Virus genome (UHGV): UHGV-1677753
Length of the DNA: 12,595 nucleotides
DNA from: a virus
Strand: one strand, 5' to 3'
In this document: piece after piece, positions 399-6,457 of the stretch
Numbering within the stretch: position 1 is the stretch's first letter
Layout: every line of letters begins with the position of its first letter
The notes under the pieces: generated by a model
Told to the model about the DNA's origin: nothing
Database searches by the model: none
Seen by the model: the letters and a program-made list of their open reading frames with translations, nothing else
Made by a program: the position numbers and the translations under genes

Positions 399-430
399 AA
401 TGGAATCAGTAATTACACAGGAGGAATAAC

Positions 431-781
431 ATTCCGCAACGAACCCCAAAAGCCTGCCGTGTTCGCGGCTGCCGCCATACCACCACTGACCCGTCAGGCT
501 ATTGCGAAAGCCACAAAAGCGAAGGCTGGAAGCAATACAAACCTGGACAATCCCGTCATCAGCGCGGCTACGGTTCGAAGTGGGACAGTATCCGCGCGCG
601 TGTCCTGAAGCGTGACAAAGGCCTGTGTCAGTTATGTCTGCGTTCTGGTGTGGTGCGTGAGGCGAAAACTGTTGACCACATCATCCCTAAAGCGCATGGC
701 GGCACTGATGCTGACAGTAATCTGCAGAGTCTGTGCTGGCCGTGTCATAAGGCGAAGACGGCCCGTGAACGGTTAAAGTGA
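431..781 (+). CDS. HNH endonuclease, terminase-associated; start codon uncertain (no in-frame ATG/GTG/TTG, proposed ATT start at 431)
   Basis: Open frame from the TAA at 410-412 to the TGA at 779-781 translates to ...PKACRVRGCRHTTTDPSGYCESH...VDHIIPKAHGGTDADSNLQSLCWPCHKAKTARERLK, with paired Cys zinc-finger-like motifs and the HNH core (DH...N...CxxCH). It sits directly upstream of the terminase small subunit. Not in the ORF track because there is no canonical start. AGGAGG at 419-424 lies 6 nt upstream of ATT 431. Confidence 0.75.
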   Translation: MPQRTPKACRVRGCRHTTTDPSGYCESHKSEGWKQYKPGQSRHQRGYGSKWDSIRARVLKRDKGLCQLCLRSGVVREAKTVDHIIPKAHGGTDADSNLQSLCWPCHKAKTARERLK

Positions 782-807
782 TAATAATTCTCAACTGTCT
801 GAGGGGA

Positions 808-867
808 GGGGCGGGTCAAATCCCTGTGACCTGACGTCTTCCGGACTGCCCGCCCCATCGTTTTTTT
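808..867 (+). terminator. GC-rich dyad (GGGGCGGG ... CCCGCCCC) followed by a T7 run; intrinsic-terminator-like, or part of the cos site
   Basis: GGGGCGGG at 808-815 pairs with CCCGCCCC at 849-856 across a 33-nt loop, followed by TTTTTTT at 861-867. It lies in the HNH to terS intergenic region. The loop is long for a canonical terminator. Confidence 0.4.
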
Positions 868-906
868 ATACCCGCGAAAAATGAAAATTAACCAGGAGTG
901 CCGCAT

Positions 907-1392
907 ATGGCTGGAACGGCGGGGCGTTCCGGGCGTCGCCCCAAGCCAACGGCGCGCAAGGCGCTGGCCGGAAACCCCGGCAAGCGAGCCCTGAACAAAG
1001 ATGAACCTGTTTTTACGCCCATCAAAGGTGTTGAGCCACCGGAGTGGTTCGCTGAAGAAGATCTCCCTCTCGCCACGATCATGTGGCAACTGACAACCAA
1101 AGAACTCTGCGGTCAGGGCCTGCTGTGCGTGACTGACTTGGCGGTACTTGAGCGGTGGTGCGTGGCCTACGAGTTCTGGCGACGTGCCGTGAAAAATATT
1201 GCCAGACAGGGCAACACCATCACCGGTGCAATGGGTGGCATGGTCAAAAATCCGGAGCTGACCGCCAAAAAAGAACAGGAGTCCGAGATGAGCAGCACGG
1301 GGGCAATGCTCGGACTCGACCCCAGCAGCCGCCAGCGTCTGATTGGCCTGGCGGGGAAGAAGAAAGCCACTAACCCGTTTCTGACAATCTGA
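907..1392 (+). CDS. terS: Terminase small subunit (P27-like family)
   Basis: ORF track 898..1392. I place the start at ATG 907 ([30 protein letters not shown]...), with AGGAG at 894-898 about 8 nt upstream. The basic N-terminus and GNPGKR motif are typical of P27-type small terminases. Position is immediately upstream of terL. Confidence 0.85.
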
Positions 1393-1405
1393 AAATCATC
1401 GAATC

Positions 1406-3139
1406 ATGAGCCGGAAATCTTACCCCAACGTAAATGCTGCCAATCAGTATGCCCGGGATGTCGTGCGCGGAAAGATTGTGGCCTGCCAGTTTGTGATTCA
1501 GGCCTGCCAGCGCCATCTTGATGACCTGATGGCGGAAAAAAGTAAGTCGTTTCGTTACCGCTTCGACAAGGATCTGGCTGAACGGGCCGCCAAATTTATT
1601 CAGCTGTTGCCGCACACCAAGGGTGAGTGGGCATTTAAACGGATGCCCATCACGCTGGAGCCGTGGCAGCTCTTTGTGATCTGCTGCGCGTTTGGCTGGG
1701 TCAATAAAGGCTCCCGGCTGCGCCGCTTCCGTGAGGTGTATACCGAAATCCCCCGTAAGAACGGCAAATCGGCAATCTCTGCCGGTGTCGCCCTGTATTG
1801 TTTTGCCTGTGATAACGAGTTCGGCGCGGAAGTGTATTCCGGTGCCACGACGGAGAAACAGGCATGGGAAGTCTTTCGTCCGGCAAGACTGATGTGTAAA
1901 CGCACACCCATGCTGACGGAAGCGTTCGGGATTGAGGTTAACGCCTCAAACATGAACCGTCCGGAGGATGGTGCGCGTTTTGAACCGCTGATCGGTAACC
2001 CCGGTGATGGTTCATCACCCCACTGTGCGGTGGTGGATGAATATCACGAGCACGCCACAGATGCGCTTTACACCACGATGCTTACCGGGATGGGGGCGCG
2101 ACGTCAGCCACTGATGTGGGCTATCACTACCGCCGGGTACAACATTGAGGGGCCGTGCTACGACAAACGGCGGGAAGTCATCGAGATGCTCAACGGTTCG
2201 GTACCCAACGATGAACTGTTCGGGATCATCTATACCGTTGACGAAGGTGACGACTGGACCGACCCGCAGGTGCTGGAAAAAGCCAATCCAAATATTGGCG
2301 TGTCGGTTTATCGCGAATTTTTGTTAAGTCAGCAGCAGCGTGCGAAAAATAACGCCCGTCTGGCAAACGTCTTTAAAACAAAACACCTCAATATCTGGGT
2401 GTCGGCGCGTTCGGCGTATTTCAACCTGGTGAGCTGGCAGAGCTGCGAGGATAAATCACTGACTCTTGAGCAGTTCGAGGGGCAGCCGTGCATTCTGGCC
2501 TTTGACCTGGCGCGTAAGCTGGATATGAACAGCATGGCGCGACTTTATACCCGCGAGATTGACGGTAAAACGCATTACTACAGTGTGGCCCCGCGTTTCT
2601 GGGTACCGTATGACACGGTGTATAGCGTCGAGAAAAATGAAGATCGCCGGACAGCCGAACGCTTTCAGAAATGGGTGGAAATGGGCGTTCTGACCGTTAC
2701 CGATGGTGCAGAGGTGGATTATCGCTACATCCTCGAAGAGGCCAAAGCGGCGAACAAAATCAGCCCGGTCAGTGAGTCACCCATCGACCCTTTCGGAGCG
2801 ACCGGGCTGTCACATGACCTTGCTGATGAAGACCTGAATCCCGTTACTATCGTCCAGAACTTCGCCAATATGTCCGACCCGATGAAAGAGCTGGAGGCAG
2901 CGATTGAATCGGGACGCTTTCATCATGACGGCAATCCCATCATGACCTGGTGTATCGGCAATGTGGTCGGCAAAAACATGCCAGGTAACGATGATTTAGT
3001 GAAGCCCGTCAAAGAGCAGGCGGAAAACAAAATCGATGGTGCAGTTGCGCTGATTATGGCGGTTGGCAGAGCCATGCTGTACGAGAAAGAAGACATGCTG
3101 TCTGACCACATTGAGTCCTATGGGATCCGCTCGCTTTAA
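1406..3139 (+). CDS. terL: Terminase large subunit (ATPase plus nuclease)
   Basis: 577-aa ORF. It has a Walker A-like P-loop ([10 protein letters not shown]) and a Walker B-like motif ([10 protein letters not shown]). Size and position between terS and portal fit. Confidence 0.95.
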
Positions 3140-6429: not shown

Positions 6430-6457
6430 GGGGCGCGGAACCGCGCCCCCTGTTCTG
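6430..6457 (+). terminator. Stem-loop (GGGGCGCGG-AA-CCGCGCCCC) followed by TGTTCT; putative intrinsic terminator/attenuator after the capsid gene
   Basis: Perfect 9-bp GC-rich inverted repeat at 6430-6438 / 6441-6449, starting 8 nt after the capsid stop codon. The downstream T-tract is weak (CTGTTCTG). Confidence 0.5.

Follow-up and report, generated by a model that had tools for sequence, protein, structure and literature searches.

A very probable cos packaging site of the HK97 class between the HNH endonuclease gene and terS in an SfV/SfI-like prophage of Escherichia coli

With regard to phages whose DNA ends have been mapped beside an HNH endonuclease gene, the Shigella phage SfI and the coliphage HK97 constitute the closest described systems. 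Run-off sequencing of SfI virion DNA termini and comparison with the prophage left a 10-nt gap, 5'-TGCCCGCCCC-3', and the authors concluded that packaging follows a cos mechanism; in the same paper the cos mechanism of SfV is called "postulated" (Sun et al., 2013; PMC3636060). In HK97 the ends are 10-nt 3' overhangs (PMC9410871; PMC11331095), the HNH protein gp74 stimulates cos cleavage by TerL and is essential in vivo (PMC9410871; PMC13595911), and TerS binds at positions +15 to +29, recognizing a G:C pair beside a bendable A-tract (PMC11331095). The assignment of nucleases to strands is still open in the HK97 system, and Chechik et al. have put forward, as a possibility, that TerL and gp74 each cut one of the two strands (PMC11331095). 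For several phage HNH enzymes encoded beside cos and terminase genes, Xu and Gupta described CG|GT (AC^CG) and close variants as the nicking specificity (PMC3592412).

The window analyzed here, a stretch of 12,595 nucleotides from virus genome UHGV-1677753, comes from a temperate phage, of which it represents the module for packaging, head and tail, and carries, in this order, genes for an HNH endonuclease, terS, terL, portal, S78 prohead protease, an HK97-fold capsid protein and further downstream genes. The HNH gene (431-781, plus strand) encodes 116 amino acids (Pfam HNH, 1.1e-16; PHROG 144, 4e-45), and its product is 36% identical to HK97 gp74 (E=5e-11). An N-terminal Cys/His cluster is visible in the translation, whereas such a cluster is not present in the HK97 HNH protein (Xu and Gupta; PMC3592412). 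Matches to the protein in tblastn include the HNH region of Lactobacillus phage Lrm1 and a Bacillus anthracis phage endonuclease located at that phage's genome end. The terS gene extends from the ATG at 907 to the stop at 1392 and is preceded by a ribosome-binding site, AGGAG, at 894-898 (feature 894-1392, plus strand); it belongs to the P27 family (Pfam Terminase_4, 2.4e-21; PHROG 83, 5e-59), and orf1 of SfV begins at the equivalent ATG. The large terminase gene terL (1406-3139, plus strand) is of HK97 type, with Pfam TerL_ATPase and TerL_nuclease matches (PF03354, PF20441) and 26% identity to HK97 gp2 across 522 amino acids (E=1e-30), and judging by these matches TerL is the nuclease that cuts cos.

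The reading frame of the HNH gene does not contain an ATG, GTG or TTG start and begins with ATT, 6 nt past AGGAGG (window 420-433). The same ATT start is given in RefSeq for E. coli SOI121, while the start is ATG in 79 of 80 relatives from IMG/VR. Because of the ATT start, HNH expression and the packaging ability of this prophage are uncertain; a drop in either HNH expression or packaging competence could result, the latter because the HNH protein of HK97 is essential for packaging. Where the same element resides in E. coli chromosomes, the order is holin, endolysin, Rz1-like gene, a small minus-strand gene, HNH, cos, terS and terL, with the late lysis genes giving way to the packaging genes. 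A 64-amino acid open reading frame on the minus strand (69-263), for which neither Pfam nor PHROG gave a match, is an artefactually shortened N-terminal part of the 112-amino acid hypothetical protein WP_000594256.1 of E. coli SOI121, the gene for which lies antisense between the lysis genes and HNH. Bases 1-70 of the window are an Illumina indexed adapter (TTTT, CAAGCAGAAGACGGCATACGAGAT, the index TGTTGACT and then GTGACTGGAGTTCAGACGTGTGCTCTTCCGATCT), and the ten bases that follow, 71-80 (ATACTGTTGG), repeat 110-119 as the reverse complement and are absent from real genomes, with E. coli SOI121 having AAGACTCAAA in this place; the contig therefore ends in a fold-back chimera plus adapter, which is neither phage sequence nor a physical genome end. 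At the other side of the packaging genes, a perfect GC hairpin, GGGGCGCGGAACCGCGCCCC, is located at 6430-6449, 8 nt past the stop of the major capsid gene (6422) and with no T-run after it, and may stabilize RNA or act as an attenuator following the most highly expressed gene.

The intergenic region between HNH and terS (782-906) had drawn attention in an earlier note on this DNA through a GC-rich dyad with a gap of 33 nt and a run of T residues, and the coordinates as well as the complementarity were verified. The arms, GGGGCGGG at 808-815 and CCCGCCCC at 849-856, are 100% complementary and 33 nt apart, and the right arm is followed by ATCG (857-860) and by seven T residues (861-867). The bare dyad is not clearly above chance: when 782-906 was shuffled 2000 times with dinucleotides preserved, 6.9% of the shuffled sequences contained a perfect inverted repeat of 8 nt or more, and the RNA fold of all 125 nt does not surpass that of shuffled sequences (z=-0.75). 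Unlike the dyad, the sequence conservation of the region is far above chance: 1113 of 5426 complete E. coli genomes (about a fifth) contain a core of 95 nt with an identity of 95% or more, and blocks of it are conserved as far as Klebsiella, 'Pseudomonas', Burkholderia phage phiE125 and HK97.

Other types of elements were sought in the same region. An Rfam scan of 1-1500 at E<=10 gave no match within 782-906 and only weak miRNA-like chance matches near the adapter end, the consensus scan found no promoter-like site in the HNH-terS intergenic region, and the small open reading frames overlapping 782-906 are mechanical ones, nested in or antisense to HNH or terS. Neither a tRNA nor a tmRNA was detected there by ARAGORN, although GGGTCAAATCCC superficially resembles a tRNA T-arm. 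A putative site for IHF, TCAAATCCCTG, is two mismatches away from WATCAANNNNTTR by eye, and its TTR part is not conserved in HK97. Two distinct alleles, TAATAATTCTCAACTGTCTGA and AGAACCAGTTCCCACTGCCAGA, occur in close relatives between the HNH stop and the G-run (782-802), and the pattern suggests a recombination boundary at the edge of the conserved block described below. Position 887 falls into A/T-rich sequence that separates the proposed TerS site from the ribosome-binding site of terS; it is A in the window (GAAAATTAA) and T in every relative examined (GAAATTTAA).

Between 300 and 1450 the window shows 95-97% identity to several phages of E. coli and Salmonella, and the value for the Shigella serotype-converting phages SfV, SfI, SfII and SfIV is about 97%. 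Position 1 of the linear GenBank records of the latter corresponds to window 782 (SfII), 840 (SfV and SfIV) and 857 (SfI), such that these records mostly begin inside or just after the dyad. The 10-nt cohesive end of SfI, TGCCCGCCCC, is identical in all ten positions to window 847-856, i.e., to the right dyad arm and the preceding TG. In the record of the Stx2e phage phiP27 (GenBank AJ298298) a misc_feature "cos-site" is annotated at 21806-21815, CGCCCGCCCC, which aligns to the same ten positions with nine identities. The linear record of HK97 ends with GGGGGGGGGATCAAATC, 24 nt ending in GAC, and CGCCGCCAAA, and restarts with GTTTGAATTTAACGCTAACCCGATTTTTTTAG ahead of the terS ATG; that of phiE125 ends with GGGAC and CGCCCGCTTC and restarts with GTCGAATTTTCACGCCCGCGAAATTAAAAAT. 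Both thus carry GAC plus 10 nt at the aligned position within the same overall layout, with about 50 nt to the terS ATG, and the records of SfI, HK97 and phiE125 stop exactly after the homologous 10 nt (aligned to 856/857). For SfV, P27 and phiE125 the evidence consists of GenBank records and of statements on these phages in other papers, and the cohesive-end sequences used as literal full-text queries of the literature returned unrelated papers only.

Four independent reference points, namely the mapped ends of SfI, the annotation in P27 and the record ends of HK97 and phiE125, therefore place the ends at a homologous spot, and 847-856 is very probably the cohesive end (cosN) of this phage type. 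Its bottom-strand nick would lie between 846 and 847, behind the flank GGAC (843-846), and its top-strand nick between 856 and 857. The positions of the ends are established for the relatives, and by homology we infer the same ends for this prophage. Points against the cos reading are the ATT start of the HNH gene, the word "postulated" for the SfV mechanism and the fact that the records of SfV and SfIV begin 7 nt upstream of the mapped overhang, at window 840. The proposal in the earlier note that the HNH-terS intergenic region is a cos site and that the dyad may include cos elements is nevertheless borne out by the SfI decamer, the P27 feature and the HK97 and phiE125 record ends, with the right arm corresponding to the cohesive end according to the SfI and P27 matches. 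The circular permutation of the prophage map relative to the virion map, also pointed out there, follows trivially for any cos phage and is no discovery. The window, which contains no att site, continues uninterrupted across the proposed ends, in keeping with a prophage.

With respect to polarity, a 3' overhang is probable for the 10-nt end because the SfI run-off reads left a gap and not an overlap, as recessed 5' ends give, and because HK97, the analogous case, has 3' overhangs. Two further observations concern ends in other records. NZ_CP081704.1, a 43.7-kb extrachromosomal record in the complete assembly of E. coli AH02, has its position 1 at about window 838, inside the cos spacer, and could be a phage genome for which linear or replicating DNA was assembled. 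Furthermore, many linear records of phages with distant hosts, including Vibrio K278, Yersinia YeP3, phiE125, Serratia Bigdog and Bonzee and cos phages of S. thermophilus, have a homologue of this HNH protein encoded close to their right end, at a distance of about 50-800 nt, which fits a widespread HNH-cos-terS arrangement. In YeP3, the point at which the record is split and the predicted AC^CG nick are 1 nt apart.

Upstream of the cohesive end, a block consisting of a G-run and GGTCAAATC (803-826, GGGGAGGGGCGGGTCAAATCCCTG) contains the left dyad arm (808-815). It is near-invariant in 44 distinct close relatives and was recognized in all lineages compared, being conserved in P27, Klebsiella phages, phi467, LV-2017 and F1055, with GGGGGGGGGATCAAATC as the HK97 version, and more loosely conserved in phiE125 and 'Pseudomonas' phage SC_8. 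The adjoining spacer (827-842) varies in sequence but not in length, the distance from TCAAATC to the AC^ nick being 24 nt in the window as well as in HK97, phi467 and the Klebsiella phages. When IMG/VR was scanned with the pattern GGTCAAATC-N{14,30}-ACCGCCGCC, all matches with a G-rich prefix had a gap of 22 or 23, and these comprised 47 distinct variants with very different spacers; the invariant AC^YGCC nick thus always follows the block at a distance of 24-25 bp. Matches with other gap lengths all occurred without a G-run and in unrelated sequence and were discarded as chance matches. A conserved hairpin within the spacer is unsupported, with a mean z of -0.55 against shuffles for the 47 variants and uncompensated swaps of GAC and GTC among close relatives. 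That the block serves as a docking or measuring site for the TerL/HNH nuclease, comparable to cosQ, is a reasonable possibility judged from its conservation and spacing, though not one we would favor over others.

The two nicks differ in their sequence contexts. That of the bottom strand, (G/T)AC^(C/T)GCC at 843-850, is invariant across lineages, and at this nick (846/847) the SfI run-off gap ends and the P27 cos feature starts, while the top-strand context varies (CCCC^ATCG, CAAA^GTTT, CTGA^CCCT and others). The complement of the bottom-strand context is CR|GT, namely CG|GT or, in the type represented by SfI and the window, CA|GT, and from its resemblance to the reported HNH specificity we infer that the bottom strand would be nicked by the HNH protein. 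One invariant nick, one variable nick and an upstream block at a fixed distance fit the idea that TerL and HNH divide the strands between them.

The third conserved element (861-881, TTTTTTTATACCCGCGAAAAA) comprises the T-run, ACCCGCG and an A-tract and lies at +5 to +25 from the top-strand nick. The T-run plus ACCCGCGAAA goes together with TerS of the P27 family: within the block, T-run plus ATACCCGCGAAAAA, TTTTTAYACCCGCGAAA is invariant in the window, P27 and SC_8, whose P27-family TerS proteins are only 49-58% identical, and the counterpart in phiE125 is TTTTCACGCCCGCGAAA. Within an IMG/VR set sharing the same left half, the type of right block matches the TerS cluster in 71 of 73, 7 of 7 and 3 of 3 cases, a co-segregation to which physical linkage contributes and which it could partly explain. 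At +15 to +29, where TerS binds in HK97, the HK97 record has CTAACCCGATTTTTT, and the window counterpart at +15 to +25 is CCCGCGAAAAA; because the latter sits where HK97 TerS binds, the T-run is read as part of a TerS site and not as the tail of a terminator. On balance we consider it likely that 861-881 is the binding, and possibly bending, site of the P27-family TerS (cosB-like). The likeness to HK97 is an analogy of position only: for the window TerS against HK97 gp1, BLASTP gave E=6.4 and hhalign a probability of 0.1%, a PDB sequence search was negative, and gp1 has no Terminase_4 match and falls into PHROG 5601, as opposed to PHROG 83 for the window TerS. A single-sequence AlphaFold (AF2) model of TerS reached a pLDDT of 40.6 and was too poor for fold comparison.

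Taken as a whole, 803-881 can with high confidence be regarded as the cos packaging site of a temperate myovirus, an SfV/SfI-like prophage of E. coli, and as a site of the HK97 class with an HNH-assisted terminase. TerS (907-1392), TerL (1406-3139) and HNH (431-781) would cut the concatemer by two nicks 10 nt apart, the bottom strand at 846/847 (GGAC^TGCC) and the top strand at 856/857 (CCCC^ATCG), and would leave the 10-nt single strand TGCCCGCCCC, presumably as a 3' overhang as in HK97. The G-run/GGTCAAATC block, 24-25 bp upstream of the bottom-strand nick, may be the docking or measuring site for the TerL/HNH nuclease, and the T-run/ACCCGCG/A-tract block at +5 to +25 would likely be the bendable recognition site of the P27-family TerS; the roles of both flanking blocks, like the polarity of the overhang, are assigned conditionally.

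A more general, and tentative, reading of these comparisons would make HK97-class cos sites bipartite and modular, which we consider rather doubtful in its full extent. The left half, consisting of G-run plus GGTCAAATC, a spacer fixed in length at 24-25 bp and AC^YGCC, would be read by the conserved TerL/HNH pair; it is common to phages of E. coli, Shigella and Klebsiella and to HK97 and looser in Burkholderia phage phiE125. HNH would set the sequence-specific nick in the bottom strand, the complement CR|GT matching the reported CG|GT preference, TerL would place the second nick by distance, 10 nt away and free of sequence requirements, and the right half, T-run, CG core and A-tract, would be exchangeable and matched to the type of TerS. 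In Salmonella phage F1055, phi467 and Klebsiella phage 1 LV-2017, the left half is kept (G-run/GGTCAAATC, or GGGGTAAATC in F1055, fixed spacer and AC^YGCC) but combined with a right half and a TerS of another type, which places a mosaic junction at or just after the cohesive end. The literature searched, a scope that did not include Allison 2002 on SfV, Recktenwald and Schmidt 2002 on P27 and Kala 2014, yielded no description of the upstream block or of its fixed spacing, and this modular anatomy is possibly the only new element here.

The dyad itself calls for separate consideration. Intrinsic terminators have loops of about 3-8 nt and a U-tract immediately after the stem. The dyad and T-run could be taken for a Rho-independent terminator that ends the lysis/HNH transcript, instead of or alongside a cos function, and the 8-bp stem made up entirely of G/C pairs, the T7 run downstream of it and the fold of 800-870, which as RNA is a branched hairpin of -28.8 kcal/mol (z=-1.98), speak for it. 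Furthermore, several Rho-independent terminators have been predicted in the SfIV genome, with no statement as to whether one lies here (Jakhetia et al., 2013; PMC3851460). On the other hand, the loop has 33 nt, a length that the earlier note had rightly called atypical for a simple intrinsic terminator, the T-run starts 4 nt after the stem, the U-run pairs with a downstream A-run instead when all 125 nt are folded, and the consensus scan lists 16 candidates in the window, the dyad not among them. In addition, terS, terL and the head genes follow directly; because there is no promoter-like site ahead of them, late transcription must read through.

Comparison of relatives likewise argues against a conserved pairing. 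The 80 IMG/VR relatives comprise 44 distinct sequences, none of which has a changed right arm, and the rare variants of the left arm, GGGGTGGG and GGGACGGG, are uncompensated. In an alignment of 13 diverse relatives, 82.7% of cells pair and one pair of the 8-bp helix is changed on both sides, with its neighbors broken in the same sequences; RNAalifold on this alignment did not recover the dyad helix and gave a covariation term of 0.01. When G-block and cut region were compared in 47 distinct CGCCGCC-type cos homologues, their longest complement was 3-5 nt in 44 and at most 7, and the perfect 8-bp match is confined to sites of the YGCCCGCCCC type, HK97 having no dyad. A function of this hairpin is unsupported, and so is, in view of loop length, T-run position, unkept pairing and the consensus scan, the terminator alternative raised in the earlier note. 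We therefore rate a terminator here, also in the form of a weak additional function at the dyad, as improbable.

A role of the dyad in packaging, with a cruciform or hairpin or a symmetric protein dimer presenting the cut site, has to be rated as very improbable. A G-rich upstream and a C-rich cut region give a loose inverted symmetry in all lineages, and the DNA fold of 800-870 (-13.1 kcal/mol) has a z of -1.93; the dyad is, however, centered at 832, about 20 bp from the nick midpoint at 851.5, which rules it out as the symmetry element of the cut. The 8-bp match is missing in HK97 and in the CGCCGCC-type sites with their short complements, compensatory changes are absent, and 7% of shuffles would contain a dyad of 8 nt. 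The hairpin itself appears to be without function, and on this comparative evidence the GC dyad arises as a by-product where two separate elements, the cohesive end (right arm) and the upstream block (left arm), happen to match. An ordinary intergenic spacer with the real packaging site elsewhere, e.g., a pac site inside terS with headful packaging, which is common among phages but has nothing specific in its favor here, is extremely improbable in view of the HK97-type TerL, the defined ends of relatives mapping to this site and the extreme non-coding conservation.

For the very common prophage family of E. coli and Shigella to which this element belongs, virion ends at 846/847 and 856/857 give the correct linear genome map, and identification as cos keeps the site from being annotated as a terminator. 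The fixed-spacing block, the invariant and the variable nick and the TerS-matched right half could guide mutagenesis in the HK97 in vitro packaging system.

Among known systems, cos of phage lambda (cosQ-cosN-cosB) resembles the site in the window in that a nick site is located between an upstream element and a downstream bendable TerS-binding region beside terS. In lambda, the upstream cos element is needed at termination, the overhangs are 5' and 12 nt long, the terminase is of gpA type and acts without an HNH protein, and cosN is partially two-fold symmetric. The window differs in its dissimilar nick contexts, one invariant and one variable, and in a 10-nt end that would be 3'; at E<=0.001 its TerL matched only PF03354 and PF20441 in Pfam, and a gpA-type large terminase was not found. 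HK97 is closer. It shares with the window the order HNH, cos, terS, the G-run plus ATCAAATC followed by 24 nt, GAC^ and a 10-nt C-rich end, about 50 nt from this end to the terS ATG, an ACCCG motif and an A/T-tract downstream, and homologous HNH and TerL proteins, whereas its TerS is without detectable sequence similarity, the 8-bp dyad is absent and the distance from HNH to cos is about 320 nt instead of about 65 nt. Location beside HNH and terS/terL, homology of HNH and TerL and homology to mapped ends thus place the site in the HK97 class, with a TerS of the P27 and not of the HK97 gp1 family. In phiP27, position and layout are the same as in the window, GGGGAGGGGCGGGTCAAATCCCTG is identical, TTTTTACACCCGCGAAA is shared and TerS belongs to the same family (49% identity), while the spacer has another sequence, the overhang begins with another base and the nick is AC^CG instead of AC^TG. 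The closest agreement exists with SfI, SfV, SfII and SfIV, which have about 97% nucleotide identity to the window over HNH, cos and terS, the identical TGCCCGCCCC end, the G-run/TCAAATC block and the T-run/ACCCGCGAAAAA block, and from which the window is set apart by a few point differences, e.g., A instead of T at 887, and by ATT instead of ATG as HNH start. The Sf phages have Shigella as host, with the ends mapped in SfI, whereas the host here is E. coli and the ends are assigned by homology; the identity of the site as such, cos of the SfV/SfI/P27 group within the HK97 class, is already known.
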